From positions 20,451 to 84,450 of the IMG/VR virus record IMGVR_UViG_3300048818_000054: 64,000 bases of DNA; one strand, 5' to 3'. Below the pieces are notes generated by a model, which ran no database searches, had not been told where the DNA came from, and was given only the letters and a program-made list of their open reading frames with translations. The stretch is from a virus. This document shows positions 12,066 to 62,344 of the stretch, in pieces. The translations under genes were made by a program, and so were the position numbers. Position 1 is the stretch's first letter; each line of letters starts with the position of its first letter.

Positions 12066-12082
12066 GGAAACCTCCTGTTTCC
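12066..12082 (-). promoter_or_regulatory. hairpin RBS (CsrB-like loop)
   Basis: GGAAAC-AGGAG-GTTTCC. Confidence 0.7.
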
Positions 12083-12099
12083 GGGGTTACTATACTATG

Positions 12100-12127
12100 A
12101 ACATACGCTCTCGCGCGCCTATGTCAA
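12100..12127 (-). promoter_or_regulatory. sigma70-like promoter
   Basis: TTGACA-16-TATGTT. Confidence 0.6.
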
Positions 12128-13327
12128 GGATTGAAACTTCACATAATGCGTAACGGCCTCAGTCATTGAAGCATGGCTAACACGGGTGCCTTCGGCAAGG
12201 TTCGATTTGGCGAGAGCCATGGTTGCGATCTTGTCGGCGGCGACATTGTTCTTGGTCGTATTGTCGTGCCCGAACGTAAGCAACAGCGACACCGCGAAGT
12301 TCGCCGCTTCACTCTGATCCATCCCTTCGAAAACCATCACCTTGTCAATGCGGCCGGCGCGGTACAGTTCCTTGGGCAGCACCTTGTCATTGTTGGTCGT
12401 CATGAACGTCAGCACGCGGCTCTTGTGCTCGGCAAGCCACCAAAGCATTTGCGAGAGCATCCCGGCCGTGGTGCCCGAACTGTCATCGTGGCTCTGGCTG
12501 AACAGCTTTTCTACCTCGTCTAGTACGATCACGCATTCTGCCTCATTGTCGGCGCGCGCAAGGTTGATGGCGAGGTTGCCTTCGGACTGACCGACGAACT
12601 TCCCTTTCGTGCCCGCAACGTCGAGACGGAACAGGGGCACGCCCCAGCTTTCGGCAATGAACTTGGCAGCGGCGGTCTTGCCCACGCCGGGCGGACCGGT
12701 TGCCAAGATGCCGCGAGGGACCAACCGCGGGTCGGTCCCCGTGAGGAAAAACGGCTTCTCTCGCGCAGTCCAGCCTTGGAGGGCTAGAGAGGGCTCATAG
12801 AAGCCCTGCTTCGTTTCGACTTGTGTGAGCCCCTGACTGCCATGAAAGCACTCCTTGCGGGTCGCGCTGAGCCCTCCTACGGTCAAGCTGGCGTCGCGCG
12901 CCATAGTGAGGCGGACAAGCTCGGCCGTTTCCTTGATCGTGCAGCCGCCGAGGCCGCGCATGAGGGCAAGCGCCTTGGCGTTGTCCTTCGTGACGTGGTT
13001 GACGAATTGGCGTAGCAGCGGCTTGGGGACCGGGGCCTCTCCCGCGTCAAACATAGGCTCCATTATCTGGTCCGGATTGACCATTATGAGAGTGCAGCCC
13101 ATCTTGACCAGCCGGCTGTAAACCTCAATGAGGTTGAATACTTCCTTCGGCTTGCAGCGGTGCCAATAGAGCGCGTCTTGCTGATCTGGCAACGGCGTGT
13201 TGGGGGGCCAAAGCTTGGGCTTCTTGCCGGTGATCTCTTCGAGCACGGCCGAAAAGTTCATCGTGTCACGCGTGCTTGTCGCAATGATGGGGATTTGAGC
13301 CTTTACGGCCAGCGCGAGAATTTCCAT
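12119..13327 (-). CDS. AAA+ ATPase
   Basis: GPPGVGKT, IVLDEVEK, MTTN, RAGRID. Confidence 0.9.
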   Translation of the reverse strand: MEILALAVKAQIPIIATSTRDTMNFSAVLEEITGKKPKLWPPNTPLPDQQDALYWHRCKPKEVFNLIEVYSRLVKMGCTLIMVNPDQIMEPMFDAGEAPVPKPLLRQFVNHVTKDNAKALALMRGLGGCTIKETAELVRLTMARDASLTVGGLSATRKECFHGSQGLTQVETKQGFYEPSLALQGWTAREKPFFLTGTDPRLVPRGILATGPPGVGKTAAAKFIAESWGVPLFRLDVAGTKGKFVGQSEGNLAINLARADNEAECVIVLDEVEKLFSQSHDDSSGTTAGMLSQMLWWLAEHKSRVLTFMTTNNDKVLPKELYRAGRIDKVMVFEGMDQSEAANFAVSLLLTFGHDNTTKNNVAADKIATMALAKSNLAEGTRVSHASMTEAVTHYVKFQSLT

Positions 13328-13329
13328 GA

Positions 13330-13344
13330 GCAACCTCCTGTTGC
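13330..13344 (-). promoter_or_regulatory. hairpin RBS (CsrB-like loop)
   Basis: GCAAC-AGGAG-GTTGC. Confidence 0.7.
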
Positions 13345-13374
13345 ACGGCGCACGATAGACGAACGCCTGCCGAT

Positions 13375-13388
13375 TGCAACTAGTTGCA
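13375..13388. repeat. palindrome TGCAACTAGTTGCA, copy 3
   Basis: Upstream of the AAA ATPase. Confidence 0.9.
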
Positions 13389-13392
13389 CGGA

Positions 13393-13590
13393 TTATGCGA
13401 CGGCGGGCACGGCGGCGTAGGATTTTTCACGGAATATGGGGAAAGAGGACGCGCGACCGATAGCGTTCAATTCGAAGGCAAGTTCGATCGCCGCGCATTG
13501 TTCAACGGCAATCGGGCGCGTCGGGTTTATGTGGCTCCGCGCCAGATACTTGCGTGAAGGCGTGGTGACCTGAACATTGAACTTCGTCAT
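13393..13590 (-). CDS. small hypothetical protein
   Basis: ATG with AGGAG RBS, downstream of a promoter-like site. Confidence 0.45.
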   Translation of the reverse strand: MTKFNVQVTTPSRKYLARSHINPTRPIAVEQCAAIELAFELNAIGRASSFPIFREKSYAAVPAVA

Positions 13591-13623
13591 GTGGCAAGCT
13601 CCTGATTGTAGGGGGATAATCAG

Positions 13624-13651
13624 GACATATGCCCTTTCTGGCCTCTTGCAA
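13624..13651 (-). promoter_or_regulatory. sigma70-like promoter
   Basis: TTGCAA-16-TATGTC. Confidence 0.45.
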
Positions 13652-13738
13652 TAGGCGCTCTTCGTATTCGTGGCGAGTACCGGTGCGATCATGAGTCCAA
13701 CTCGATCTCGTCATCCTCGTCATCGGGCTCCGGTCCCA

Positions 13739-14035
13739 TCACTTGCTCGCCACAAGGTTAATGTTCACAAGGGTTTGCTTGATTATCCAGCCGCGAGGGA
13801 TGGTGATGCGATTGTTGGTTTCCATCTTCTCGCCGTTCATTCCCCATGTTCCGGCAACGACCAAGCAGTCGTCATCCTCAATCACGACCATGCCTATGGA
13901 CGTGCAGCGCTGGGGCAGGTCGGCCTCATGCTGCTCTTTCCAGCCCACATCGGCCACCGCATCGTCCCAAGTGACGATCACGACTTTGGCGCGAACGCTG
14001 ATCTTGGCGGGCTTGACGGGGGCTTTCTTGACCAT
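13739..14035 (-). CDS. conserved-looking phage hypothetical protein
   Basis: VIVTWDDA...SIGMVV...ITIPRGWI pattern. Confidence 0.65.
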   Translation of the reverse strand: MVKKAPVKPAKISVRAKVVIVTWDDAVADVGWKEQHEADLPQRCTSIGMVVIEDDDCLVVAGTWGMNGEKMETNNRITIPRGWIIKQTLVNINLVASK

Positions 14036-14039
14036 GGCG

Positions 14040-14480
14040 TCATTCCTTCGGCTTTGTCAGCTTGTGGATTAAGGCGGTAGCCGAGGCGGTCTTCTTCGGC
14101 CTGTCGTCTATAATCTTCCCCGTGGCGAAGGCGTCAATCAAAATCCCGCAGCACGCGCGTACTGAGGCCAAGTTCAATACCAGCGACCGGCTGTCAACGT
14201 CGATATCGTCGCCGCAAAACCATTGCATCAAATGGCGCATTGCTGCGTCATAATAGATGCTTGCGCGTATCGGCGTATCCAGCCAGTTATATGCTCCGTA
14301 CTTGGCGGCTCCGTCCGCCATAACGCGCCCTTCTTCAAGCAAGGCGACCGGGGGGATGTAACTGATCCCCGGTTTGAGCCGGCCGATTTTGTCTTTCGGG
14401 TTGCTTAGGTCGTGATCGGGCGGTAGCGCAGCGTCACCGGATGAATGAGCCACAGAGGCTTTTTTAACTCGCGAAACCAT
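14040..14480 (-). CDS. dATP/dGTP diphosphohydrolase-domain protein (DUF5664-like)
   Basis: NPKD...GAAKYGAYNW...YYDAAMRHL..W..G.DID.DS...LA...AC..IL. Confidence 0.8.
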   Translation of the reverse strand: MVSRVKKASVAHSSGDAALPPDHDLSNPKDKIGRLKPGISYIPPVALLEEGRVMADGAAKYGAYNWLDTPIRASIYYDAAMRHLMQWFCGDDIDVDSRSLVLNLASVRACCGILIDAFATGKIIDDRPKKTASATALIHKLTKPKE

Positions 14481-14803
14481 GCGATCTCCATTTGGACGCC
14501 CTTGCTGTCTTTCCAGCCGGGCATTTCAGCGATCAAGCCGCCGTATGAAACCTCGACCATGGGTTTGTCCAGCGGCATAAAGATCGCGTGGGAAAAGGGG
14601 TCGATCCCGGACGCAAGGGCGATGCCGTGCGTATGTGCGATCGGGCTAAAAGTTGGGACGCCCGCAAGGAACAGGCGGCCGGTCATTTTCTGCGCGAACG
14701 CGTTGGCGTCATTGATGCCGTGAGGCCACTTCGAATAGCAAGTCCCCAAGTACCAGTAACCTTTGTCCTTGGGAAGTTCGGTGATCTCATATTCGGTTCT
14801 CAC
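14405..14803 (-). CDS. DUF1937-family protein (nucleoside deoxyribosyltransferase-like fold)
   Basis: YLGTCYS, FSPIAHTH, PGWKDSKGVQMEI; GTGA overlap start. Confidence 0.75.
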   Translation of the reverse strand: MRTEYEITELPKDKGYWYLGTCYSKWPHGINDANAFAQKMTGRLFLAGVPTFSPIAHTHGIALASGIDPFSHAIFMPLDKPMVEVSYGGLIAEMPGWKDSKGVQMEIAWFRELKKPLWLIHPVTLRYRPITT

Positions 14804-16479
14804 GCTCGGTACCTTCCATCCGCCAATGTGACGATCGTGCGCTTGCCGCTCTGGTAAGTGACGATCTCCGCGTGATGCCACGCGCCCGGTCCCTTCGAGG
14901 CGTATCGAAGGTCAAGCCTTGAGGACGTGCCCGCGATATAGGCTCCGTCTCTGATTTGCGGCTCATGCGTGTGAGCGGTGTTCATGCGTTCGACAAGCTT
15001 TGCCATGCCCATGGGCGAGCCGCGCGTGCCACGCGGGCCTTTGTCGCCGTGCAGCCCACATTCGATTGGCGCGGTGTCCTGACAGACAAGATAGGAGTTG
15101 CCGGGGTTGAGGAAGCGGACGCCTTCGAGGTCGCTACCGGAGTTCCGCAGCCCGAAGATATGGGCTTGGAACTCTTCTCCGTCGCCGTCTTCAATCGCCT
15201 TAAACCACGCGGCGTTCAATTCGTGCCAAATGCGCGCGTTGCCGGGATCGTAATGGCCGGCCGTGTCCTTGAGCCACGTATCGAGCATGGCATTGTGGTT
15301 CGATGCGACGTGAACCGAAGTTGACCAGTCGCGCATGGTCGCGCGAAGGAAATGCGCCGTGTTGACGAACATGTTTCGAACGCTGTCCTGCTTCTCCGAT
15401 CGTATCAAGGCGTTTTCGTGCGGGTCGCGGATAGTGTGATGCCCGCGCGCCTTCATCGAAAAGCTGTCGTGAAAGAACTGGTGCTTGGGTTTCAAATCAT
15501 CGAGCATCGAGCTACCACCGGGACCGATACTTGGGCCGCACGCAACCGGCGTCCAACCCCACAGCACCTTGGCAACGTCCATGTCGAGTTCTTCGTAATG
15601 CACGTCGCCCCAAGTAATCGCTTCGACGGGCGGGCCGGGCATGACCTCGCCATCCTTCACGAACACGTCAAGGTCTTGGAATGAGCCGTCTTTGCCGAAA
15701 GATATCTGGCGCAGAAAGAACACGCCATCGGGCCGTATCTCCGCGATGGTCGCGCCGGGAGTGTGGTGGAACTCGGCCTTCTGGCCGGCATTCTTCTGGA
15801 CATAGTTCGGCTTCGTGATGACGCCTGTGGTCATGATTTGCTTGCCGGGCCGGCCGGGCATAACCGGGACGCTCTTCAAAGCGATCTTGGCATGTGGGAA
15901 CACGGCCCAATGGTCGCGGGTGTTGGTTTCCCAGCCGGTGAGGGGATCGACGGCGGTAGGAAGGATGTTCGCCTTGCCAAACCACGTCAGCTTGGGCGCG
16001 AGGTCCACCACTTCGGGGCGCAACAATTTCTCGATCCTTTGCGAGAAATGGCCGGTATCGACCATGTGCTCTTCGAAGAGGCCCTTCTGATAGGTGAAGC
16101 CGCCGACTATGACCTCTCCGTCGCGCTGGGCGGCGTATGCCTGTAGATTGTTCAGGGCGGCCTCATACGTGCCAGTTTCGTCTTGGGCGGCGGTCATCAA
16201 GACCACGCGTACTTTGGCTGGGCGGGCTTCTACGGTCATCTTTGGCAGCAAAATCTTGGTCTTGGTACCGGCCTTCAAGGCGTGAGCGTCTGCCGTGGTG
16301 GTTGCATCCTTCGGCGGGAGCAAGCCTTGCGCTCGCATCCTGACGACGTGCTGGAAAAACGTGGCGCGCTTGACGTGCATCAACTTGCTGGCAGCTTCGA
16401 CATTGCCCTTGGTTTTTGCCAAGTTTGCGCGGGCGCGTTCGACATATTCGGACGCGAAGACAATCAGGGAAGCGCTCAT
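14800..16479 (-). CDS. large phage metallophosphoesterase-like protein with N-terminal HTH-like segment
   Basis: WGDVH, HD, SNHN, LHGD, NTAHTH motifs. Confidence 0.7.
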   Translation of the reverse strand: MSASLIVFASEYVERARANLAKTKGNVEAASKLMHVKRATFFQHVVRMRAQGLLPPKDATTTADAHALKAGTKTKILLPKMTVEARPAKVRVVLMTAAQDETGTYEAALNNLQAYAAQRDGEVIVGGFTYQKGLFEEHMVDTGHFSQRIEKLLRPEVVDLAPKLTWFGKANILPTAVDPLTGWETNTRDHWAVFPHAKIALKSVPVMPGRPGKQIMTTGVITKPNYVQKNAGQKAEFHHTPGATIAEIRPDGVFFLRQISFGKDGSFQDLDVFVKDGEVMPGPPVEAITWGDVHYEELDMDVAKVLWGWTPVACGPSIGPGGSSMLDDLKPKHQFFHDSFSMKARGHHTIRDPHENALIRSEKQDSVRNMFVNTAHFLRATMRDWSTSVHVASNHNAMLDTWLKDTAGHYDPGNARIWHELNAAWFKAIEDGDGEEFQAHIFGLRNSGSDLEGVRFLNPGNSYLVCQDTAPIECGLHGDKGPRGTRGSPMGMAKLVERMNTAHTHEPQIRDGAYIAGTSSRLDLRYASKGPGAWHHAEIVTYQSGKRTIVTLADGRYRA

Positions 16480-16489
16480 GGGGAATGCC

Positions 16490-16924
16490 TCATGGTTCGC
16501 CGTGCTTTGAGCACAGTTCGGCACGCGCTTCGTCTCTACCTTGCTGTCGGGCGTGTTCCAACTCGATCCGATGTTCTGATCGAGCTAGGGTTTCGGCAAC
16601 ATTAGTGGCAAGGGCGCGCGCCGAGGCAGCTTCGGAAAGTATCTGATCCAGTCGAGCGGTAGCCCGCGTCTGCGCGCTGCTCATAAATTCCATCAACTCG
16701 CGAAGCCGGGAAAGGACTTCGGCAATTTGCGCGGCCATTAGGCCGAAGCCTGCGCTCTGAGCGGTCGGATCGACGGCAAGCGAAGTCGCTACCGCGCCAC
16801 GGATGCGCTTGTAATAGCCCCAAACTCCAACGGCGGTGACGGCAACAGCCATTCCGAAATTGGCATAGGCTTGAAGCGAGCCAGAAAACATATTTGCCAC
16901 GTCTGGCCCCGCGCCTTCCATCAT
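16490..16924 (-). CDS. single-TM membrane protein (lysis region)
   Basis: TM segment FGMAVAVTAVGVWGY followed by a coiled coil. Confidence 0.55.
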   Translation of the reverse strand: MMEGAGPDVANMFSGSLQAYANFGMAVAVTAVGVWGYYKRIRGAVATSLAVDPTAQSAGFGLMAAQIAEVLSRLRELMEFMSSAQTRATARLDQILSEAASARALATNVAETLARSEHRIELEHARQQGRDEARAELCSKHGEP

Positions 16925-17403
16925 TCACCTTCCGGTCGATCAATCTCCAAGGTCGCAATGTAAGTGTTCACCACGTCCAAGATGAATAGACCAACGTATA
17001 CGGGGGCAGCGAAGTTCCAGTGCGGTAAAGAGAACGCGCCGAAGATAAGCTGAAACCAGACGAAACAAGAGAGGAAGGAACAGGCCGCGCGAATGTGCGG
17101 GGATAGGGTAAATGTGGGGAATGTGCCGTTGATAATCAGCGCGAATAGGCGCCCGCCGCCGAGTAGCAGCATGACGTATAGCCAAAAGTCTTGCGACGCT
17201 AGACGCGTGAGATAGGCGTAAGTGTCAGCGTGCGGGTCATTCTCGAATAGGCCCTGATTTTGCATCATGACCAGTCCCATCCCGAACAGGATGCCCGATG
17301 CAACCCACGACCCGTAGCGCAAACGGAAATGCGCCATTGCTCCCCTGAACAAGGAATTGACCGGATTGTAGTTTGGGTTCCGCGCTATCGCCATTTCCAT
17401 CAC
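16921..17403 (-). CDS. multi-TM membrane protein (holin candidate)
   Basis: About 4 hydrophobic helices; adjacent to the spanins. Confidence 0.5.
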   Translation of the reverse strand: MMEMAIARNPNYNPVNSLFRGAMAHFRLRYGSWVASGILFGMGLVMMQNQGLFENDPHADTYAYLTRLASQDFWLYVMLLLGGGRLFALIINGTFPTFTLSPHIRAACSFLSCFVWFQLIFGAFSLPHWNFAAPVYVGLFILDVVNTYIATLEIDRPEGE

Positions 17404-17882
17404 GGCCTCTTGACGCCGGCTCGAAGGTGTTGAAGCACCTTATGCCAGAAAGGGTGCCATACGACCGGAGCCGGCGCGGGAACAGGCGGCGTCGCTGTCG
17501 CAATTCCTGGTACGACAGCGGCGGGGGCCGGAACGGGGGGTGTAGGGACAGCGGCGGGAATTTCGACCTTCGTTCCGACCTTGGGGGCGAACCAGCCTAG
17601 GTAGGAATGCGTGGGCACAACGGCGGTGATCTGGCGGCCAACACGCGTGACCACGACGGGCGGGTCTTGCGCGGCGGCTAGGTTGCTCACGCGGGTCCAA
17701 CAGCCGGCCGAAACGCCGCGCTCGAAGTGGGCCGACAGACGCATTTCCCCGACCTTCGTTGTCGAGTGGACGTTCTGCAAACTGTCAACGATGACACCGC
17801 AAGGCTTGTCAACTGGCAGGCTTGATACACACCCCGTTGTCGCGATCCCAATTGCCACCAGCGGTAAAGCAATCTTCAACAT
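17400..17882 (-). CDS. o-spanin-like lipoprotein (Rz1-like)
   Basis: Signal peptide with lipobox-like ATTGC; Pro-rich tail; overlaps the i-spanin 3' end. Confidence 0.65.
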   Translation of the reverse strand: MLKIALPLVAIGIATTGCVSSLPVDKPCGVIVDSLQNVHSTTKVGEMRLSAHFERGVSAGCWTRVSNLAAAQDPPVVVTRVGRQITAVVPTHSYLGWFAPKVGTKVEIPAAVPTPPVPAPAAVVPGIATATPPVPAPAPVVWHPFWHKVLQHLRAGVKRP

Positions 17883-18081
17883 TTTTCTGTCCCTTTGCAG
17901 CTTCCGCCTGCGACTTCGCATTGGCGGTCTGAATATCGGTTATCGCGGCAGCGTAGCCTTCGTCATAGACCTTGTGGTGCTCATAGGCGAGGAAGCCCGC
18001 CGCGCCAGCCACGATGACGCCATAGAAAGCGTAACGTAGCAAGGCGGGAAGGCCGATGTTCGTAATGAGGAAGGCGAGCAT
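17809..18081 (-). CDS. i-spanin-like protein (Rz-like)
   Basis: N-terminal TM, periplasmic helix, two Cys; downstream of the endolysin. Confidence 0.6.
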   Translation of the reverse strand: MLAFLITNIGLPALLRYAFYGVIVAGAAGFLAYEHHKVYDEGYAAAITDIQTANAKSQAEAAKGQKNVEDCFTAGGNWDRDNGVCIKPAS

Positions 18082-19176: not shown

Positions 19177-19190
19177 TGCAACTAGTTGCA
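19177..19190. repeat. palindrome TGCAACTAGTTGCA, copy 4
   Basis: Upstream of the endolysin. Confidence 0.9.
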
Positions 19191-19202
19191 ATCTTCTCTA
19201 GC

Positions 19203-36037: not shown

Positions 36038-36051
36038 TGCAACTAGTTGCA
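36038..36051. repeat. palindrome TGCAACTAGTTGCA, copy 5
   Basis: Upstream of the tail chaperone. Confidence 0.9.
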
Positions 36052-37961: not shown

Positions 37962-39794
37962 TTAGAACTGCGACGCGACAACGTGAAGGCCCGTGCCCCA
38001 AGTGTCGCCCGCCAGAGCGGTGACGCGCGCGGCCAAGGTCGCCATGGCATTCGAGATTGCCACTTGGATAGTCGCGGCCAAGGTGTTCTGAACGCCACTC
38101 GCGCCGGTCGCGCCGGGATTGGTCGCGGCTACGGCGGCGTTGTCGGTCGTCACAACGTCGTGGATGGCGACAGTCGCGGCCGGCAAGACGCCGCCCGAGT
38201 TGTCGATCAAAGGCTGCAAGCCCGTGGTGCCGCCCACGTCGCCAAGGACAGCGTTCAACTGAGAGGCCATATAGGCGATGTTCGCCGTAACGGCCGCCAG
38301 AGTGGCGTTCCAAGTCGTGAGCGAAGCGCCGAGGGCAGCCGCGCCAGTCGTGGTCCCGCCGAGCACGCCCGAGCCGTCGAACACTTCCGAGTGCGTAGAC
38401 GTGTTCGTGAAGACCAGCGAGTTGCCGCCGACGCCATCGACCAAGGCCGTGACGCTGAAGGTCGCGCCGCCACCCGCGTTCGGGACAAGCGAGGCAACCA
38501 CCGTGTCTGGAACCGCCGTGTTCGGGACATAGACGCCCGCGCTGATGCCCGCCAAGCCGCGAACGGTCGAGGCCATCGAGGCGATAACGTCGGCCATGGT
38601 GGCAGCGAAGCCGGCCGCCGTGTTGGCGCGCACCTGAATTTGGCCGGGCGTGGTGCCAAGCGTCGTGATGAAGCTGAACGATTGATTGCCAATCGTCATA
38701 ATGTCGCCGTTGATGAAGTTGGTAGTGGTGGCTTCCGTGATGGTGCCCACGGCCTTGATGCCGGCCGCAACCGCGACCGTGGAGGCTTCGGACGCAAGCG
38801 TGGTCGAAACCGTCCCGCCGATGTTGTCCACCAGCGCGGCGAGATCGTTCTTCTCGCGATAGAGGTTGATCTTGGCGAGGATCGAAGAAAGCGCGTTCTG
38901 GTAGGCGTCAATGAGCGTGTTCGTGCCCGCCGTGGGGAGCGAAGCGCCGGACACGTCCTGATAGCCGACCGGAGCCACAACCGCGACCTCGGCGATGGTG
39001 AGGACGCCCGAAGCGCCGCCCGTGCTGTCGGTGAGGGTGCCGGGCGTCGCGCCTTGCGTGAAGAATTCATTGTAGGCGCTGGCGAGAGAGGCGAAGTTAT
39101 TCGCGACGGCGGCCAAGAACGCGGTGCCATCGGCCAAGAGAACCGAGTCCGAACCGGTCGCGCTGTCCACGGCGGCGGGGATAAGCCCGATGACCTTGGA
39201 GAGGTTCACTTCGCTGCCGAACGCATTGGCGATGACGGGCGCGCCGATGGCGGCCAAGCACTGGTTCATGCCGAACATGAGGTTGTACTGCGCGTTCATG
39301 ATCGCATCGGCCTGCGCCACATACGAGGCGTAGCTGACGGCCAGAGCGCCCGCGCCGGTCGTGCAGGACAAGTCCTGAGCAACGATGGTCCCGAAGGTGC
39401 CGAGCGAGCCTTCCGCGTACTGAAGGTTCGCGACGCCGAGGCGGGCCAGCATGTTATTGATGACCGAAACCCAGCCCTGAATGGCGTTGCGCGTCTTGGC
39501 AACGGAGGTCGTGAGGGCCGTGGTAAGGACGCCGCCCGCCGACACGGCGTTATAGACGCCCGTGGGGGCAATGAGGTTGACCAGCGGTAGCGCGCCGTCG
39601 CCGCCCATGGTGGGGGGGATGGCTGCGGTGCCCGTCGTGCTGTCGGTCACGGCGCTGACGGCGGCGACCTGAAGTTTGGCAATGGCGTTGTCGATCGCGA
39701 GGCCACGGACAATGGCGGCAAGACCGTCAACCTCTCGGCTGGCGACTTTGGACTCGCCCGAGAACTGGGCGCGCTTGACAAAAACTGCGGTCAT
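37962..39794 (-). CDS. large Ala/Thr/Gly-rich putative virion protein
   Basis: About 610 aa between neck and tail tube genes; shares a module with tail proteins. Confidence 0.6.
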   Translation of the reverse strand: MTAVFVKRAQFSGESKVASREVDGLAAIVRGLAIDNAIAKLQVAAVSAVTDSTTGTAAIPPTMGGDGALPLVNLIAPTGVYNAVSAGGVLTTALTTSVAKTRNAIQGWVSVINNMLARLGVANLQYAEGSLGTFGTIVAQDLSCTTGAGALAVSYASYVAQADAIMNAQYNLMFGMNQCLAAIGAPVIANAFGSEVNLSKVIGLIPAAVDSATGSDSVLLADGTAFLAAVANNFASLASAYNEFFTQGATPGTLTDSTGGASGVLTIAEVAVVAPVGYQDVSGASLPTAGTNTLIDAYQNALSSILAKINLYREKNDLAALVDNIGGTVSTTLASEASTVAVAAGIKAVGTITEATTTNFINGDIMTIGNQSFSFITTLGTTPGQIQVRANTAAGFAATMADVIASMASTVRGLAGISAGVYVPNTAVPDTVVASLVPNAGGGATFSVTALVDGVGGNSLVFTNTSTHSEVFDGSGVLGGTTTGAAALGASLTTWNATLAAVTANIAYMASQLNAVLGDVGGTTGLQPLIDNSGGVLPAATVAIHDVVTTDNAAVAATNPGATGASGVQNTLAATIQVAISNAMATLAARVTALAGDTWGTGLHVVASQF

Positions 39795-39842: not shown

Positions 39843-39856
39843 TGCAACTAGTTGCA
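39843..39856. repeat. palindrome TGCAACTAGTTGCA, copy 6
   Basis: Upstream of the 37962..39794 gene. Confidence 0.9.
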
Positions 39857-46034: not shown

Positions 46035-46048
46035 TGCAACTAGTTGCA
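46035..46048. repeat. palindrome TGCAACTAGTTGCA, copy 7
   Basis: Upstream of the prohead protease. Confidence 0.9.
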
Positions 46049-53308: not shown

Positions 53309-53322
53309 TGCAACTAGTTGCA
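53309..53322. repeat. palindrome TGCAACTAGTTGCA, copy 8
   Basis: Between DNA polymerase stop and portal start. Confidence 0.9.
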
Positions 53323-55721: not shown

Positions 55722-55741
55722 GGCGTGCTCCTAGGCGAGCG

Positions 55742-56143: not shown

Positions 56144-56337
56144 TTGATTGATCCCTTGTAGTTGGCGGCTGACCATTTACCGAGCGTCGCGCCAAGATAG
56201 GTCACGACAAAATCAGCCGTAACGCCCACTTGTGCGGTGCAGAGCAGCTTGACCGGTTCGTCCGTTAGGGCAGGGAAGGGCGACGGCGTTTCCAGCCTAT
56301 CGCCAACTTTGAGGCTATTGAAAAACGAAACGTCCAA
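56131..56337 (-). CDS. hypothetical protein
   Basis: 68-aa ORF with GGAG RBS. Confidence 0.55.
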   Translation of the reverse strand: MDVSFFNSLKVGDRLETPSPFPALTDEPVKLLCTAQVGVTADFVVTYLGATLGKWSAANYKGSIKWKL

Positions 56338-56346
56338 AGGGGGCTC

Positions 56347-57246
56347 CTACTGCTTGAGGGCGATCTTGGCAAAGTCGGGGAACGGCGTGTCAATCGCGAT
56401 GCCGAGGCCCATAAGGATTGCGCCGAGCGTCTTGCGCGCGAGCGGTATATCGTTGGCGATGCCCAAATGAAGGCTGGCGTAATCTGGCTTGAAGGTATCG
56501 AACCCGACGCCGATAATTGCGTTCTTGTGGGCGAGCAGCTTCGGACCCTCGATCCGGATTGAAAGCTGAGCGCCGTTATACTTGACCGCGACGTTCACGC
56601 CCTCGCCTCTCGCAACCACGAAATATCGCGAGCCGGCCGAAGTGCCATGGACAGGCTGGTAAAGGTGCTCCGCGCTCTTGAGATTAATCGTTGGTCCGTT
56701 CATTATGTCGCCTTCCTTAGTCGCATATTTCATCGGGGCGGTGCTGGTCGCTTGGAACGTCTTGCTGGTCCCGAGCGGCATCGGCTTTTTGAGGAACGAT
56801 AAGTCCTGAGCGTCGAATACTTCGGCTGCATCGTCGGCCGTCAAATCGATGGGCTGAGACTTCAATTTCGGCAAGGTGCTGAGAATGCTTCCGGGGGCAG
56901 CCGGCTTAGCGAACAGTTCGTGAGCCTTTTCCATCTGCGCCTTGGCAACCGTATGGGCCTTGATCGCATAGGAGATTGACTCTTTCACGTAAGCGGCTAG
57001 AGACGTGTTCTTGACTATGGGAAGCTTATTCTTGGTATCCGCTTGCAGATGGGGCGATATTTCCGCTGCATGGACCAAGAGGCCGTTCGTGCGGTCGCAA
57101 AACCACAAGCCGCTCGGCTTCCAAAAGACAGCCAGACCGACCGCCCACATTTGCTTCAAATCTTTGTCGCTACCCGTGAGCCACTGGATATCGTTCCAAG
57201 CGGACTTTAGTTTCGTGGGAGCGTCTTTCTTAATGAACAAAGCCAC
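56347..57246 (-). CDS. hypothetical protein (own promoter, hairpin RBS)
   Basis: GTG start 7 nt after AGGAG. Confidence 0.75.
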   Translation of the reverse strand: MALFIKKDAPTKLKSAWNDIQWLTGSDKDLKQMWAVGLAVFWKPSGLWFCDRTNGLLVHAAEISPHLQADTKNKLPIVKNTSLAAYVKESISYAIKAHTVAKAQMEKAHELFAKPAAPGSILSTLPKLKSQPIDLTADDAAEVFDAQDLSFLKKPMPLGTSKTFQATSTAPMKYATKEGDIMNGPTINLKSAEHLYQPVHGTSAGSRYFVVARGEGVNVAVKYNGAQLSIRIEGPKLLAHKNAIIGVGFDTFKPDYASLHLGIANDIPLARKTLGAILMGLGIAIDTPFPDFAKIALKQ

Positions 57247-57247
57247 C

Positions 57248-57264
57248 AAAAACCTCCTGTTTCT
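57248..57264 (-). promoter_or_regulatory. hairpin RBS (CsrB-like loop)
   Basis: AGAAAC-AGGAG-GTTTTT (one G-U pair). Confidence 0.65.
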
Positions 57265-57278
57265 ATTGGCTTATTTAC

Positions 57279-57307
57279 AATATAGGCGTGATCCGAAGCG
57301 GTATCAA
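57279..57307 (-). promoter_or_regulatory. sigma70-like promoter
   Basis: TTGATA-17-TATATT. Confidence 0.65.
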
Positions 57308-57337
57308 GTAGCATTTGGGGGAATGGTGAACAGATCG

Positions 57338-58168
57338 TTAAGCCCCCCAAATATTGCTCTTGGACGTGACCGGGCAATAGCTGTCGATCACCCCATGTGA
57401 CGTGTCATAGCTGGTCTTGGACCCTGCGGAGTAGTTGTTGCCGGTGTATGGGGTAACTTCATTCTTCCCGGACTTGGCGGTCGTCTTGTAGCCCTTGTGC
57501 TTCAACTTCTTGCAACCAAACTCCTTGACCAGAAAATCGACTTGCGACGTGCTCTCTACCGCCGTCTTGCAGTAGTTCGTGCGGACATACTCGATAGCGT
57601 CGCTCTCTCCGTAGCGGGTGACCAGCGCGGCAAGGAACATACCGGTCCGCCCGTGTCCGCCCATGCAACCGCAATGGACTTTTCGGCCGGCGTCGATCTG
57701 CTTTTTGGTCCAGTCCACCAGCTTGTTGAATTCTTCCGGCTTGTCCGGGATGCCCATGTCGGGAATGCGGAACAGGACTTCATCGCCCTTCTTCCAAGGC
57801 CAATTGCGTTGCGTGAACCGCATGTCATAGGCGAAGCCGATATACACGTCGGCGTCTTGGACGATCGGCTCGGAGCACGACCCGCCATAGATCACCTTGT
57901 CGGTCCCCGGCAACGGCATAGCCGGATGCTTATGGTAGCAGCGGGAAAAGATGCCGGCGTAATTGTGAGACTGATACTTTGTGCCGGTGCCGCTGACGCC
58001 GTGATGCTTGGCAGACGCCAGTTCGAATTTCGAATAACGCTGTTCCGCGCCAGAGCGCCACGGTAGCACGCCTTGCGCGCTGTAAGCCGGGTCGTGGCTG
58101 TCTTGCGGACCTAGGCCACCGTCACGGTGCTTTTCAAATTCGTCCCATGTATCCAGATACTTTGCCAT
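57338..58168 (-). CDS. Cys-based (PTP/dual-specificity-like) phosphatase with N-terminal extension
   Basis: VHCGCMGGHGRTG (CX5R); TAATG-coupled start. Confidence 0.85.
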   Translation of the reverse strand: MAKYLDTWDEFEKHRDGGLGPQDSHDPAYSAQGVLPWRSGAEQRYSKFELASAKHHGVSGTGTKYQSHNYAGIFSRCYHKHPAMPLPGTDKVIYGGSCSEPIVQDADVYIGFAYDMRFTQRNWPWKKGDEVLFRIPDMGIPDKPEEFNKLVDWTKKQIDAGRKVHCGCMGGHGRTGMFLAALVTRYGESDAIEYVRTNYCKTAVESTSQVDFLVKEFGCKKLKHKGYKTTAKSGKNEVTPYTGNNYSAGSKTSYDTSHGVIDSYCPVTSKSNIWGA

Positions 58169-59256
58169 TATGCCGCTTCCTTTCGAATGATCTTCTTGAC
58201 GTAAACCGGACCGGCCTTGCCGGGCATAACCAGCAAGTGTTCCTTGATGAAATTCTTCTTGTCGAGCGCGACCTGCGCGGCGAAAGCTTCGGCCTTGGCC
58301 TTGGCGGCGGCGATGGCGGCCTTTGTTTCCGGCGTCATGCCATAGATTAAGGTCTGTTTCTTTATTTCGTTCGGATATTTTTGGACTGAGCCTTTCGCTT
58401 CCACCGTGTTCCAATCGACATAGGGGCCGATCGCGCCGGGGAAGTAATCGCGAACCCAAGCGGCCATCCCGGTCATTTCCGGGTTGACGTAGTGAGCCAT
58501 TTCCGGGTCGTGAAGGATGGTCTCAATCATCTGTCCGGAGCGCTGCAAATCGAGCAGCCGAACAATGTAACTTCCGTTATGGCCGAACAGCTTACCAGGC
58601 TTGTTAAAGATGGGAGCGCAATTGTGCGAGAGGGTCCAAATGGTATCGAGCATGATCTCTGCCGTAAACTCGCCGTTCACAAAACGGCCCATGCAATCGG
58701 CAATGTTGCCCCACTTAGGACCGCCGTAAGCGCCGCCCCAGATTGAATGATAGTAAGACCAGCGAAGCGCGTCGCATAGCGTCCCGATCGAACAATCCAG
58801 CGTGTTCTTGAGCAGGCGGTTGATAATGTCTTCCTCGCCGCCAGAGGCGGTAAGGAAGTTGGCGACCGGCGCTCCGAATTTTTCGGTTAGCTTCGGTCCA
58901 TCGGTCTGCTTCGAATGACTGTGGCGGGCCTCGCGAACGCATATGGAAAGCAAGTAATAAAACGAGCGGCGGGCCTTCTCGCCCATCATCGCATGGTAGC
59001 GCTGAACGAAGTCCAATTCGGCGGCCGGCAGCGGCTCCAACGGATGGCGCTTGGCCGAGATTAACGCCATGCCATGGTTCATGCCGTAAAACCAAAGGGC
59101 TTCACGTTCAGGGCTGGCAAGAGGCGTCTTGTCTTGAGAATGAAATTGCTTGTAGGCGGGGATCACCGAGGAAACGGGAACTGCCGACATATCGGCCGGT
59201 CGCGTCAAAGCGCGTGAATTGTGATAGGCCAAAGTGTTTTGTGGGTCTGTGAGCAC
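58168..59256 (-). CDS. uncharacterised helical protein in the PPDK/phosphatase cluster
   Basis: 362 aa; own promoter; motifs CVREARH, YGGPKW..IA, HNCAPIFNK. Confidence 0.75.
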   Translation of the reverse strand: MLTDPQNTLAYHNSRALTRPADMSAVPVSSVIPAYKQFHSQDKTPLASPEREALWFYGMNHGMALISAKRHPLEPLPAAELDFVQRYHAMMGEKARRSFYYLLSICVREARHSHSKQTDGPKLTEKFGAPVANFLTASGGEEDIINRLLKNTLDCSIGTLCDALRWSYYHSIWGGAYGGPKWGNIADCMGRFVNGEFTAEIMLDTIWTLSHNCAPIFNKPGKLFGHNGSYIVRLLDLQRSGQMIETILHDPEMAHYVNPEMTGMAAWVRDYFPGAIGPYVDWNTVEAKGSVQKYPNEIKKQTLIYGMTPETKAAIAAAKAKAEAFAAQVALDKKNFIKEHLLVMPGKAGPVYVKKIIRKEAA

Positions 59257-59263
59257 GCCGGAA

Positions 59264-59276
59264 AAACCTCCTGTTT
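59264..59276 (-). promoter_or_regulatory. hairpin RBS (CsrB-like loop)
   Basis: AAAC-AGGAG-GTTT. Confidence 0.6.
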
Positions 59277-59289
59277 ATCAGGCATTTAG

Positions 59290-59318
59290 AACATAGCATC
59301 TAGGAGGGTCGCGTTCAA
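59290..59318 (-). promoter_or_regulatory. sigma70-like promoter
   Basis: TTGAAC-17-TATGTT. Confidence 0.6.
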
Positions 59319-59337
59319 GCGGTAGTTTCTGCGATGG

Positions 59338-59835
59338 TTAAGAAAGTCCTAAAAACCATCCGAAGCGCTTGCGCCACGCCGCCCAGAAAAACCAACGCTG
59401 GATTTCTTCAACGGGGAAGGCGGCTACGTAATCGATCTGCTCTTCTGTCTCGCACGACCGGTCATCGTAATGCCAGCGGACGTAGCCGACCGGATTTCCA
59501 ATCCCGGCGACCTTGGCTAGGAGCGCAAGGAACAGACCGGTGCGGCCGATGCCGCCCATGCAGCCGACGTAAACTTTCTTGCCGTCCAGCATGGCTCGGA
59601 GCGCTTTCTTGAGGACCGAGACGACGGCTGACGTGTCCTGCGGAACCTGAAAGTCCTTGATTGGCAACCACGCATGGACGCCTTCGAACGGGACGCGCTC
59701 GGAGCGAACGCAAACGTTGAAGGTTCCGCCGACCGGGCGCGCGTCAAACGGGCCACCGTCGATATCGAAACGATACCAACCGCCGTCCCATTGAAAATAG
59801 AGAGGCATTGAATTTGTCAGTCTCTTATGAAGCAC
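59338..59835 (-). CDS. Cys-based (PTP/dual-specificity-like) phosphatase
   Basis: VYVGCMGGIGRTG; LPIKDFQVP; ET.EQ. Confidence 0.85.
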   Translation of the reverse strand: MLHKRLTNSMPLYFQWDGGWYRFDIDGGPFDARPVGGTFNVCVRSERVPFEGVHAWLPIKDFQVPQDTSAVVSVLKKALRAMLDGKKVYVGCMGGIGRTGLFLALLAKVAGIGNPVGYVRWHYDDRSCETEEQIDYVAAFPVEEIQRWFFWAAWRKRFGWFLGLS

Positions 59836-59836
59836 G

Positions 59837-59853
59837 CGAAACCTCCTGTTTCG
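59837..59853 (-). promoter_or_regulatory. hairpin RBS (CsrB-like loop)
   Basis: CGAAAC-AGGAG-GTTTCG. Confidence 0.7.
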
Positions 59854-59857
59854 TCAA

Positions 59858-60070
59858 TCACTTATAGCACATTTTGACAGCATCGCAAATGATATCGCCG
59901 TCAATGGTTAAGAGCCAATCCCTGAACCGCCAGTTCCCATATTCGCTTGTGACTGGCGAGGCGCGCCGTCCCATGGCGGCGAGGGTACGGGCGAACATGC
60001 CGCGCATCCCATCTTCCTTGGCGTGAGCGATGGCGTTATCCGACACGCGGTACACCCTGAACCTTGTCAT
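59858..60070 (-). CDS. hypothetical protein
   Basis: 70-aa ORF overlapping the CsrA-like gene end. Confidence 0.5.
   Translation of the reverse strand: MTRFRVYRVSDNAIAHAKEDGMRGMFARTLAAMGRRASPVTSEYGNWRFRDWLLTIDGDIICDAVKMCYK
59861..59888 (-). promoter_or_regulatory. sigma70-like promoter
   Basis: TTGCGA-16-TATAAG with TG extended -10. Confidence 0.5.
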
Positions 60071-60341
60071 AGCCGTTTTCCTCGCGCCATCTGTCGCCCT
60101 TTAAGATACGCATGGATTTGGGCGCGTCAATAACGACTCTCGCAATGCCGTGTTGCGGGCGGTCCCCGGACGAAATGAACACGTCAGGCATAATCTCTGT
60201 CGCCTCTTCCTCTCCGATCTTGAACATCTGGTCGCCGGCCGCGAGGGTGAAGGTGAAGCGTCCGGAGCGATACGCCACGAAAACCTGCTTGTCGGCAACA
60301 TAGAAATCGTCGCCTTCTCTGAGGCTGAGGGTGAGGGGCAT
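60036..60341 (-). CDS. CsrA/RsmA-like RNA-binding protein (with insertion)
   Basis: LTLSLREGDDFYVAD ~ CsrA LILTRRVGETLMIGD; ARVVIDAPKSMRILKGD ~ VRIGVNAPKEVSVHREE. Confidence 0.55.
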   Translation of the reverse strand: MPLTLSLREGDDFYVADKQVFVAYRSGRFTFTLAAGDQMFKIGEEEATEIMPDVFISSGDRPQHGIARVVIDAPKSMRILKGDRWREENGYDKVQGVPRVG

Positions 60342-60345
60342 GAGG

Positions 60346-62325
60346 CTAGGCTCCTAAGACAGAGAACACGGCATATTCAGCGGGCATAGCCTTGGGCGCT
60401 GCCGTATGGCCGTCGTGGTCGATAATCAGACCCGCCAGAGCCTTACCACGGATTTTGATCGCGTTCTGTAAAACCTTGACGAACGGGTCGGTCTTGACAG
60501 TCAGGTTGCCGAAAGTCTCGCGTAGCGTGTCGTCAGCTTCGTTCAGGAAAGCCTTGGGCGGGCGAACGTCAAGGGTGACGTGCATACGCATCGGCAGAGC
60601 CGCGAGGCCGTCCAACACCGCCGTCATGACCTCTTCCGAACCCCACCACTGAGAGGCCATGATCCGATGGGGCTTGGCCGCTCCCATGTCGCACGGGACA
60701 GGCGGGCAAGTGCCGAGCATTTCGAAAGACCAATCGATCACGTTCTGGACCGCCTTGTCATCCGAGGCGTCGATCACCGGAACCTCTTGATTGATCCAAA
60801 CCCGGCCGGTCGAACCGTCGATCGTAACGGTTTTCCACTTGCCGGCGTTGTCCAGCATATGCGGCCCGACGCCAACCACGCAAGTCTTGTCCATTGCGCG
60901 GGCGACCACGGCGGCGTGACTGGTAGCACCGCCCATGGCGGTTAGAATGCCCTTGGCCTTCGCCATCCCGGCGATATCGTTAGGGCTGGTTTCGTGCGTC
61001 ACCAGAATGCAATCGAACTTGGCGGCGACCGCATCGGCCGAGCTAAACACCGGCTGCGCGGTCACGACGCCGGGGCAACCGGGGATGCCGGTGAAATCTG
61101 GCTTGACCTTGTAATCGGGATCAATCTGCGGGCGGCGCAGCGTCTTGAACTGTTCGCTCGAAAGTTTCTTGAAAGCGTCAAGGCGGGTCCACTCGCCAGC
61201 GCCCACCTTGTCTACCGCGATGCGGAAGGCCGCGCGCGCCGAGCGCTTTCCAGAGCGGCTTTGCAGGATATAAAGCTTGCCCTGCTGAACCGTAAACTCA
61301 ATGTCCACCATGTCATTATAGATGGTTTCCAGCTTCGAGCAGAGCGCCAAAAGCTGGGCGTGAACGTCGGGCCAAGTAAAGTCGAGGCCGTTCGTGTTAT
61401 AATTCCACTTGCCGATCATGCCTTCAACGGGATGCGGGGTCCGGATGCCGGCCACCACGTCTTCACCTTGGGCGTTCTCCAAAAACTCTCCGAACATGCC
61501 GGGCTCGCCAGTTGACGGGTTGCGAGTGAAAAGGACGCCGGTTCCGCTCGACTTGCCCATGTTGCCGAACACCATCGCCTGTATGGTAACGGCGGTGCCC
61601 ATGTCATCGGGGATGCTATTCAGCTTGCGATACTCAATGGCGCGGGGGCTCTCCCAGCTATCGAACACGGCCAAGATGGCGGCAGCTAACTGCGCCCCCA
61701 AAGTATTGGGGAATTCCTTCTGCGTCGCGGCCTGAAACTTCTGTGTCATCAAAAAGCTGACCGCCTTCAAAGCGCCAACGGTCAGGTCGGTATCGAGCAC
61801 CGCTTTATCGAGCACCTTCATTGCGGCCAACTCGCCGTCAAACACGGCCATCGGAACACCGAACGCCGTTGCGCCGAGCATCGTTATCAAGCGACGGTAG
61901 CTGTCGAACGCGGCGCGCTCGCCAATCTTATCCCCCCAGCTATCGACGTTGCTTGTCGTGAGGCCGACGTTCAAAATCGTGTCCATCATGCCGGGCATAG
62001 AAACTGGCGCGCCAGAGCGGACCGAAACGAGAGGCATGAAGCCGAACTTCTTTTCGAGGGTCGCCATGTGCTCCATGGTCTTTGCGACCAAACCATCAAT
62101 GAAAGACACGTCAGCCGTCGTCACGCCGGCCTTCTTCATTACGCGGAACTTATTGCAAACGTCCGTCGTGATGGTGAAACCAGGAGGAACCGGCATTCCA
62201 TCATTGACCATCCTCACAAGGCCGGCACCCTTGCCGCCAAGGACGCGCTTCGTTTCCGAAGCGTCCGACGATTGCCACTGGCAACCGGTGTCCGAAAAAT
62301 CATACATGGGAAGGTAGTCGGTCAT
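60346..62325 (-). CDS. PPDK-like dikinase: ATP-grasp + phospho-His swivel domains, lacking the PEP/pyruvate barrel
   Basis: LGGKGAGL, PVPPGFTITT, LVSVRSGAPVSMPGMMDTILNVG, NAQGEDVVAG, GGATSHAAVVAR; only 659 aa. Confidence 0.9.
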   Translation of the reverse strand: MTDYLPMYDFSDTGCQWQSSDASETKRVLGGKGAGLVRMVNDGMPVPPGFTITTDVCNKFRVMKKAGVTTADVSFIDGLVAKTMEHMATLEKKFGFMPLVSVRSGAPVSMPGMMDTILNVGLTTSNVDSWGDKIGERAAFDSYRRLITMLGATAFGVPMAVFDGELAAMKVLDKAVLDTDLTVGALKAVSFLMTQKFQAATQKEFPNTLGAQLAAAILAVFDSWESPRAIEYRKLNSIPDDMGTAVTIQAMVFGNMGKSSGTGVLFTRNPSTGEPGMFGEFLENAQGEDVVAGIRTPHPVEGMIGKWNYNTNGLDFTWPDVHAQLLALCSKLETIYNDMVDIEFTVQQGKLYILQSRSGKRSARAAFRIAVDKVGAGEWTRLDAFKKLSSEQFKTLRRPQIDPDYKVKPDFTGIPGCPGVVTAQPVFSSADAVAAKFDCILVTHETSPNDIAGMAKAKGILTAMGGATSHAAVVARAMDKTCVVGVGPHMLDNAGKWKTVTIDGSTGRVWINQEVPVIDASDDKAVQNVIDWSFEMLGTCPPVPCDMGAAKPHRIMASQWWGSEEVMTAVLDGLAALPMRMHVTLDVRPPKAFLNEADDTLRETFGNLTVKTDPFVKVLQNAIKIRGKALAGLIIDHDGHTAAPKAMPAEYAVFSVLGA

Positions 62326-62327
62326 CG

Positions 62328-62344
62328 TTGAACTTCCTGTTCAA
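62328..62344 (-). promoter_or_regulatory. hairpin RBS (CsrB-like loop)
   Basis: TTGAAC-AGGAA-GTTCAA. Confidence 0.7.

Follow-up and report, generated by a model that had tools for sequence, protein, structure and literature searches.

Covarying hairpins at ribosome-binding sites and a divergent CsrA-like protein in a clade of PPDK-encoding phages

Why do some genes of a phage present the Shine–Dalgarno sequence (SD) of their ribosome-binding site (RBS) in the loop of a small hairpin, and what might recognize such hairpins? We addressed this question in a 99,945-bp phage genome (IMG/VR record IMGVR_UViG_3300048818_000054; GC 58%), for which the minus strand is the coding strand of nearly all genes. 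The window, which is the whole 64,000-nt stretch analyzed, comprises bases 20451–84450 of this genome, and coordinates refer to the window unless marked as genome coordinates. Besides the hairpins, the window encodes a 101-aa CsrA-like protein, and in the following sections, we consider the two as candidate operators and candidate regulator of a phage-encoded translational circuit.

Hairpins at the ribosome-binding sites of a subset of genes

A sequence-only reading of the window had described six hairpins with an SD in the loop, together with a variant carrying an AAGAG loop (7181–7195). All seven were recovered, each read on the minus strand:

62328..62344, minus strand: hairpin TTGAAC[AGGAA]GTTCAA, RBS of the PPDK-like gene (ATG 62325); dG −4.4 kcal/mol
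59837..59853, minus strand: hairpin CGAAAC[AGGAG]GTTTCG, RBS of a 165-aa DSP/Tyr-phosphatase gene (GTG 59835); dG −5.6 kcal/mol
59264..59276, minus strand: hairpin AAAC[AGGAG]GTTT, RBS of open reading frame 362 (ORF362; GTG 59256)
57247..57265 (Watson–Crick core 57250–57262), minus strand: hairpin (AUAG)AAAC[AGGAG]GUUU(UUG), RBS of ORF300 (probable GTG 57246)
13330..13344, minus strand: hairpin GCAAC[AGGAG]GTTGC, RBS of an AAA ATPase gene (ATG 13327); dG −5.9 kcal/mol
12066..12082, minus strand: hairpin GGAAAC[AGGAG]GTTTCC, RBS of ORF247 (TTG 12064); dG −6.9 kcal/mol
7181..7195, minus strand: hairpin GCAAC[AAGAG]GTTGC, RBS of a 154-aa ORF (ATG 7176)

A start codon (ATG, GTG or TTG) follows 6–10 nt past the SD at all seven, and the ORF300 hairpin has four Watson–Crick pairs, or 7 bp when G.U pairs are counted. 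The whole genome contains 14 hairpin sites, six to seven of which lie outside the window (genome 96433, 93509, 90427, 20301, 17298, 14111 and 6509). Two of the 14 have changed inner pairs (GCGAC[AGGAG]GTCGC and AAGC[AGGAG]GCTT), one has a hexaloop (CAGC[ACGGAG]GCTG), and at 11 the GGA is unpaired in the loop. Their stems of 4–6 bp are weak, with stabilities between −2.8 and −7.5 kcal/mol. The structural block (~44 kb, genome 33.8–77.7 kb) contains no such hairpin, in agreement with the earlier claim that the RBSs of structural genes lack this form.

The family clearly exceeds chance expectation. The 11-mer AACAGGAGGTT, allowing at most one mismatch, occurs eight times in the window versus 0.51 expected, a count that none of 100 shuffled sequences reached, and seven of these eight matches lie on the coding strand ahead of genes. 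We rejected the plus-strand match AACATGAGGTT at 39274 as a chance occurrence, because its stem has 3 bp and the gene around it is encoded on the other strand. Of the 66 AGGAG occurrences on the coding strand of the whole genome, 9 sit in the loop of a Watson–Crick stem of at least 4 bp (~0.37 expected, ~24-fold), and AGGAG is the commonest loop among the 554 pentaloop hairpins with at least four Watson–Crick pairs. The proposed compensatory changes in the stems were assessed at ten sites chosen by the motif AAC-loop-GTT alone, which leaves the next two outward positions unselected. The first of these pairs is Watson–Crick at all ten sites (A-T, C-G or G-C; P=1.2e-6) and the second at eight (P=5e-4), and pairing beyond them is at chance level. 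Compensatory change is thereby upheld within the genome, and it extends to related phages.

Two further loci resemble the family in part. In the leader at genome 14070–14125, located 6.3 kb left of the window, TTGACT-16-TATCGT is followed 7 nt past the −10 by ACAAC[AAGAG]GTTGT, which adjoins a second hairpin, TCGGAC[ATTCC]GTCCGA, and then an SD (AGGAGAAGGA) and an ATG. The SD comes only after the second hairpin, so the RBS there lies outside the family hairpin; a two-site arrangement is possible. At genome ~96833–96860, GGAAAC-N10-GTTTCC stands behind a TTGCAA-16-TATGTT promoter; its arms are those of the ORF247 hairpin, and its 10-nt loop has no SD on that strand.

Covariation in related phages

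The closest cultured relatives (~67–70% nucleotide identity in the PPDK region) are the Rhizobium phages RHph_TM16 and RHph_Y1_11, the Rhodobacter phage RcZahn, and Stenotrophomonas phages of the genus Delepquintavirus. We collected 80 IMG/VR loci around PPDK homologues and picked the PPDK RBS in each by position, not by structure. The PPDK RBSs of the relatives show the same hairpin design with unrelated stems, namely ACC/GGT, AACC/GGTT, GACC/GGTC, TCC/GGA, TGCC/GGCA, GGCC/GGCC, GCAC/GTGC, TGATC/GATCA, TTCA/TGAA, TTCTCA/TGAGAA and CCCA/TGGG. Covariation, which was looked for in related phages, is evident at this site: in an ungapped alignment of 43 distinct PPDK RBS sequences, the covariation score is 0.478, compared with 0.157±0.030 in shuffled alignments (none of 500 reached the observed value), and sliding the 3′ partner lowers it to at most 0.155. 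Of the 43 sequences, 39, 41 and 32, respectively, form the three inner pairs. Clade-wide, there are 122 distinct hairpin RBSs, of which 85 have a 4-bp stem, and their fourth stem pair is CG in 34, GC in 32, AT in 29 and TA in 27. The stems of the clade thus covary without sequence conservation.

The position of the hairpins is likewise shared. By GenBank gene calls, hairpins in RHph_TM16 and RcZahn lie ahead of PPDK, both Tyr-phosphatase genes, an RNase H-like gene, a HicB-like gene and several ORFans, and none lies ahead of a capsid, portal or tail gene. Both of these phages, which were cultured on alphaproteobacteria, contain the hairpins as well as the CsrA-like gene.

Inverted repeats of this kind might also act in DNA, as operators for a dimeric repressor just downstream of promoters. 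The repeats do lie at +1 to +30 of promoters, the genome uses a DNA palindrome, TGCAACTAGTTGCA, at gene boundaries that has the half-site GCAAC in common with the hairpins, and a test based on G.U pairs (see below) did not favour RNA. What speaks against DNA operators is that the arms covary without sequence conservation and that the fourth pair is evenly composed of CG, GC, AT and TA, which is not expected from base-specific half-site recognition. In addition, the centre of the repeat is always an SD at a fixed 5–7 nt from the start codon, and the sites are biased to the coding strand (132 versus 4 on the opposite strand). We regard such operators as very improbable.

The loop matches the CsrA/RsmE recognition site

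To define the loop without presetting it, 1249 clade sites with GGAG, a start codon and an ORF were scanned in eight registers for enclosure by at least 4 bp. Two registers were enriched, NNGGAG (85 sites) and NGGAG (32 sites), and the six others together gave 33, approximately background; the GGA was unpaired in a hairpin loop at 118 clade sites. Among the 86 hexaloops, base 1 is A in 79, versus 38% at non-hairpin sites, base 2 is variable (A 48, T 19, C 15, G 4), and the closing pair is C-G in 66. The start codon follows 4–10 nt past the loop in 112 of the 122 clade sites, most often after 6 nt.

The published consensus from in vitro selection with CsrA, RUACARGGAUGU, is presented mostly in 6-nt loops with AC/GU closure and at most 4 bp (PMC7652899), and in nuclear magnetic resonance structures, RsmE contacts the conserved A and the GGA of an ANGGAN hexaloop (PMC7652899; PMC3791407). 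Judged by sequence, the clade loop consensus C-[A-N-G-G-A-G]-G matches this high-affinity CsrA/RsmE site. In the genome studied here, most sites have the pentaloop C[AGGAG]G, which resembles the CAGGAxG repeat of CsrB, and the analogy with CsrA targets that had been drawn from these pentaloops turned out stronger than claimed, since the clade loop is an ANGGAN hexaloop closed by C-G. An A fixed two bases ahead of GGAG, with a free base between, is not predicted by pairing of SD and anti-SD alone.

Hairpins lie in short leaders behind promoter-like sites

The hairpins are restricted to promoter-proximal, non-structural genes. The 100-kb coding strand has just 38 matches to the pattern TTGnnn-N16-18-TAnnnT. 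Of 13 hairpins examined, 10 sit 7–35 nt downstream of such a match. The association with sigma70-like promoters proposed by the sequence-only reading therefore holds by pattern; a stricter consensus promoter scanner accepted only one of the pattern promoters in 56–63 kb, so that “promoter” here denotes a pattern call. The promoter-like sites nearest to the seven hairpins of the window are as follows:

62361..62388, minus strand: sigma70-like promoter TTGCAA-16-TATGTT, 16 nt upstream of the PPDK hairpin; pattern match only
59861..59888, minus strand: promoter-like TTGCGA-16-TATAAG, ends 7 nt ahead of the phosphatase hairpin; read from sequence
59290..59318, minus strand: promoter-like TTGAAC-17-TATGTT, 13 nt upstream of the ORF362 hairpin
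57279..57307, minus strand: putative promoter TTGATA-17-TATATT in the ORF300 leader; 10/12 consensus match
13352..13379, minus strand: promoter-like TTGCAA-16-TATCGT, ends 7 nt ahead of the AAA ATPase hairpin; −35 overlaps palindrome TGCAACTAGTTGCA
12100..12127, minus strand: putative promoter TTGACA-16-TATGTT, 17 nt upstream of the ORF247 hairpin
7282–7309, minus strand: promoter-like TTGACA-16-TATCGT, nearest to the hairpin of the 154-aa ORF, ~90 nt upstream

Across the clade, a promoter-like site lies within 70 nt of 57 of the 122 hairpin RBSs, versus 200 of 3415 other candidates. The stem usually starts 13–22 nt past the −10, which indicates that the leaders are short and that the hairpin is not 5′-terminal.

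These features bear on the possibility that the hairpins are protein-independent cis elements, which provide an SD context on short leaders, while the CsrA-like protein acts on host RNAs. The stem could tune initiation, insulate the RBS from variable coding sequence, or slow 5′-end-dependent decay. The hairpins are weak enough for the 30S subunit to open them, three to four sites have a stem 7 nt past the −10, at about +1, like a protective 5′-terminal stem-loop, host manipulation is the published proposal for phage CsrA proteins (PMC8450108), and some clade members that carry the gene have few or no hairpins. The prevailing clade spacing of 13–22 nt is not that of a 5′-terminal element, and we rejected a 5′-terminal stabilizer, which fits only the three to four sites with 7-nt spacing. 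SD pairing and stability also leave the A at loop position 1, the free position 2 and the fixed C-G closure unexplained, and the loop register is conserved exactly while the stems turn over. Cis elements that need no protein are therefore an unlikely explanation, albeit one that deserves to be taken seriously.

Alternatively, the loops could be endoribonuclease cleavage sites that inactivate early mRNAs in the manner of T4 RegB. Their geometry fits the RegB requirement (PMC3014915), as does their limitation to promoter-proximal non-structural genes. A six-frame search of the genome gave no RegB homologue (PF10715), and no nuclease candidate was identified; moreover, where strong RegB sites have an A-rich 3′ context (GGAGRAYARAA), the loops are followed by the stem. 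Cleavage at these loops hence appears rather improbable.

A divergent CsrA-like protein is encoded in a hairpin-led operon

The PPDK hairpin precedes an operon that contains the candidate regulator:

60346..62325, minus strand: PPDK-like gene (PPDK_N and PEP-utilizers mobile domain; ATG at 62325), first cistron of the operon
60036..60341, minus strand: 101-aa putative divergent CsrA-family protein with a ~33-aa insertion, candidate hairpin-binding regulator

The CsrA-like gene starts 4 nt past the PPDK stop codon, and its RBS is a separate AGGAG without structure. No match to the CsrA hidden Markov model (PF02599) was obtained in six frames of the genome. The protein matches a profile of its homologues at E=9e-33, and homologues lie directly downstream of PPDK in 48 loci. 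When the family profile, built from 28 sequences, was compared with the Protein Data Bank, nine sequences were found at E≤1, all of which are CsrA, RsmA/E, RsmF or RsmN. Conversely, 24 of the 28 homologues have a PF02599 match (best E 7.8e-8), with two at 29.1–29.2 bits, above the gathering cut-off of 27 bits. By the profile and the Pfam matches of its homologues, the 60036–60341 protein, which had been put forward as the CsrA candidate, is thus assigned to a divergent CsrA family.

The alignment with E. coli CsrA comprises two segments, the N-terminal beta1-beta2 (LvLslk.. with LILTRR..) and the C-terminal APK...R44 block (idAPreieIlRgdkyr with vNAPKEVSVHREEIYQ). In CsrA, the conserved RNA-contact segments are beta1 (L2, L4, R6/R7) and beta4-beta5 (NAPK-x-V-x-V-H-R44-E-E-I). 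L3, A73 and P74 are invariant among the homologues and I79 is almost invariant; most of them have R at the position of R44, and the R6-equivalent is L. Between the two CsrA-like segments lies the insert of ~33 residues, which is poorly conserved and predicted to be beta-rich by AlphaFold2 (AF2). CsrA proteins have a fold of five beta strands plus a helix and form an intertwined dimer. The AF2 monomer (predicted local distance difference test score, pLDDT, 85) has nine strands and a C-terminal helix, and its fold matches include RsmN (4kji; Z 4.6, root-mean-square deviation 2.0 Å over 50 residues, 30% identity), CsrA (1vpz; Z 4.7) and RsmF (Foldseek probability 0.95).

A word-based homologue search gave only two matches, one with a precomputed PF02599 annotation and the other a hypothetical protein encoded on a Nitratireductor chromosome. 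The latter, a 101-aa homologue with 48% identity, is found on a 3.98-Mb contig of Nitratireductor sp. OM-1 and may belong to a prophage or phagemid of the PPDK phage clade that resides in a member of the Rhizobiales. The homologues in RHph_TM16, RHph_Y1_11, RcZahn and DLP_5 are annotated as hypothetical, an annotation that our sequence comparisons would correct to divergent CsrA family. The gene is annotated as CsrA in a related Vibrio phage, in which it likewise has PPDK and a phosphatase as neighbours (PMC12038007).

The phage DNA was found repeatedly in peat and permafrost metagenomes. Three peat metatranscriptome runs contained short contigs identical to parts of 56300–62500, including 60130–60491, which overlaps the CsrA-like gene. 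Activity of the phage in situ is possible, with DNA carry-over as another potential source of these contigs, which show neither starts, strand nor level.

Gammaproteobacterial hosts such as Stenotrophomonas and Vibrio carry CsrA/RsmA, and the ligand of the hairpins could be such a host factor (CsrA/RsmA or another SD-binding protein), either placing the phage genes under host Csr control or being titrated by the hairpins as decoys. The match to the canonical CsrA consensus suits this explanation, and some clade members infect Stenotrophomonas or Vibrio (PMC12038007). The same hairpins are nevertheless present in phages that infect Rhizobium and Rhodobacter, and CsrA is reportedly absent from rhizobial genomes (PMC7143759), which argues against host CsrA as the ligand, with the reservation that a plasmid-borne copy exists in S. 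meliloti. Since a hairpin-led operon of the phage itself also encodes a member of the family, we consider a host ligand improbable.

Linking the protein to the hairpins

Loci with and without the CsrA-like gene differ in their hairpin content. In gene-bearing loci, 132 of 3831 SD-like candidates are hairpin RBSs (3.4%), compared with 9 of 1466 (0.6%) in gene-less loci, where SDs are in use; six of these nine lie in same-clade fragments too short to contain the gene. On the opposite strand, the control counts were 4 in gene-bearing and 3 in gene-less loci. In a quick tree of PPDK, all 25 gene-less loci fall into one clade with 100% support, so that the co-occurrence amounts to a single evolutionary contrast, not 80 observations. 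The link between gene and hairpins consequently comes mainly from the match of the RNA to the specificity of the protein family and from the position of the gene in a hairpin-led operon.

On these grounds, we lean towards the interpretation, with modest confidence, that the phage's own CsrA-like protein clamps the hairpins and represses the early mRNAs of the phage, those of its own operon included. We infer here that the protein binds the hairpins, that binding represses rather than protects or activates, and that the regulated genes are early.

In the proposed sequence of events, host RNA polymerase would transcribe short-leader mRNAs from the sigma70-like promoters, in which a weak stem of 4–6 bp with C-G closure would hold the first cistron's SD, A(N)GGAG(G), in a loop of 5–6 nt. 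Early in infection, 30S subunits would invade the weak hairpin by means of the strong SD, and translation would proceed. The divergent CsrA-family protein, made from the hairpin-led PPDK operon, would accumulate, bind loop and stem and occlude the SD, which would shut down translation of all hairpin-led genes including the PPDK operon. The logic would be that of T4 RegA on a CsrA scaffold.

Several observations weigh against this interpretation. As set out above, the co-occurrence of gene and hairpins is one phylogenetic contrast, and we reject it as strong statistical evidence. An asymmetry of G.U versus A.C pairs beyond the stems, which would distinguish RNA from DNA, did not favour RNA (10 versus 22, near the composition expectation). 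Several gene-bearing clade members, such as DLP_5, have 2-3-bp stems or none, and 3 of the 14 sites of the genome have no GGA in the loop (AAGAG or ATGAG). A second GGA 10–63 nt away for dimer bridging is a typical, not an obligatory, CsrA feature, and dimeric CsrA usually uses two sites; between −45 and +65, further GGA motifs do not exceed the chance frequency and are absent from several leaders, which would fit single-site recognition. On the side of the protein, the 60036–60341 sequence by itself has no Pfam or PHROG match, it has Lys at the position of CsrA Arg44, and the similarity of the AF2 monomer to CsrA and RsmN is weak (Z 4.6–4.7), below that to unrelated beta-sandwiches (Z up to 7.4). 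Finally, the metatranscriptome contigs show merely the presence of the 56.3–62.5 kb region in RNA libraries.

A broader version of the same interpretation, which we hold more tentatively, is a self-contained viral Csr circuit, in which an insertion-bearing CsrA derivative would serve as a clade-wide translational shut-off of early genes through 10–15 single-hairpin operators per genome. The clade in question consists of ~100-kb PPDK-encoding siphoviruses, many with alphaproteobacterial hosts that largely lack Csr, and CsrA would have been domesticated by the virus to regulate itself and not the host. The N-terminal beta1 and the C-terminal beta5 may form a single composite RNA-binding face, and we speculate that the insert makes the protein a one-faced pseudo-dimer.

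Relation to known systems

The closest parallel is provided by the targets of CsrA, RsmA and RsmE (the CsrB/RsmZ repeats and the glgC and hcnA leaders), which likewise combine a short stem of at most 4-6 bp, C-G closure and overlap with the SD, and an A-N-GGA-N hexaloop or CAGGAxG pentaloop. The proteins have beta1 and the beta4-beta5 “APK...R” segment in common. In contrast, the phage protein carries the ~33-aa insertion, scores below or near the Pfam threshold and is phage-encoded, and it would presumably act on promoter-proximal mRNAs of the phage itself, at one site per leader. A search for a CsrB-like sponge RNA, in the form of clusters of GGA-loop hairpins, gave nothing above background on either strand. 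An insertion inside the CsrA fold has a precedent in RsmN/RsmF of Pseudomonas aeruginosa, in which it rewires the topology while recognition of ANGGA hairpins is kept (PMC3791407), and RsmN 4kji is the best-fitting solved chain to the AF2 monomer. The insert of RsmN is a 16-residue helix between beta2 and beta3, whereas that of the phage protein is, in the model, ~33 aa long, beta-rich and located past beta3, with the C-terminal helix retained.

The proposed logic resembles that of T4 RegA, an autoregulated early protein that represses initiation on ~30 early mRNAs, its own among them. The operators of RegA are A/U-rich, lack structure and are located over the AUG (PMC3014915), unlike the structured, SD-centred sites described here; the folds are unrelated, and a six-frame search of the genome for RegA (PF01818) gave no match. 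T4 RegB sites are similar in that the GGAG SD of early, not late, genes is singled out for shut-off, with a preference for unpaired GGA. RegB differs in acting by cleavage with S1 as a cofactor; here, PF10715 had no match in the six-frame search and the 3′ stem arm directly follows GGAG. The SAS motif of Cluster K mycobacteriophages (GGGATAGGAGCCC) is also a repeated, RBS-embedded motif ahead of a subset of genes, with GGG/CCC flanks that could pair around AGGAG (PMC3203893). It is conserved in sequence and does not covary, occurs in unrelated phages and hosts, and is not known to be linked to a CsrA-like gene. Two other element types were considered and rejected. The PeSL cassettes of T4-like phages are terminator/promoter composites and not RBS hairpins. 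Lambdoid nut/boxB antitermination hairpins have a stem of 5 bp and a GNRA-like pentaloop (GAAAA/GACAA), follow an early promoter and are not RBSs; the loops described here are A(N)GGAG and represent SDs at a fixed spacing from the start codon.

Phage CsrA homologues are known and, together with plasmid-borne ones, widespread, and host manipulation is the usual assumption. Mobile members of the family (Campa 2021; RsmQ; PTXU04 gp28; Vibrio phage J26 ORF99) resemble the present case in being encoded on mobile elements, and Vibrio phage J26 also has the neighbourhood of PPDK, CsrA and Tyr phosphatase. In the published view, which differs from ours, they manipulate the host, for example its CRISPR-Cas (PMC8450108) or its motility, and the role of phage CsrA in the phage cycle has been called untested (PMC11879866). 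In the literature searched, we found no description of a family of cis sites on phage mRNAs for a phage CsrA, and the RcZahn paper mentions neither the hairpins nor the promoters. The hairpins provide a concrete set of sequence-defined candidate operators, located on mRNAs of the phage itself and maintained by covariation in many genomes, by which the open role of phage CsrA becomes testable in the cultured phages RcZahn (Rhodobacter capsulatus) and RHph_TM16 (Rhizobium). If the interpretation is correct, the clade would possess a second, evolutionarily independent translational shut-off of early genes beside T4 RegA and RegB, the Csr mechanism would be at work in hosts without Csr, and protein and hairpin would constitute a compact orthogonal translational repressor-operator pair.

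Neighbouring sequence elements and genes

A C precedes most of the −10 hexamers (CTATGTT, CTATCGT, CTATAAG and CTATATT, at 12100–12105, 13352–13357, 57279–57284, 59290–59295, 59861–59866 and 62361–62366). The alphaproteobacterial promoter consensus is CTTGAC-N17-CTATAT, and the resemblance hints at an alphaproteobacterial host.

The 14-bp palindrome TGCAACTAGTTGCA has 15 copies in the genome, always intergenic and also within the structural block. Eight lie in the window (4868–4881, 10215–10228, 13375–13388, 19177–19190, 36038–36051, 39843–39856, 46035–46048 and 53309–53322) and seven outside. The copy at 13375–13388 overlaps the −35 (TTGCAA) of the hairpin-led AAA ATPase promoter, and the half-site GCAAC is the stem of three hairpins. 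The palindrome probably acts separately from the hairpins, at the level of DNA, as an operator or as a phage-specific promoter.

The region downstream of PPDK contains two DSP/Tyr-phosphatase-like genes (Pfam Tc-R-P / PTP-SAK), at 57338–58459 and 59338–59835. Their family is named “thymidylate synthase” in PHROGs, which looks like a mis-propagated label.

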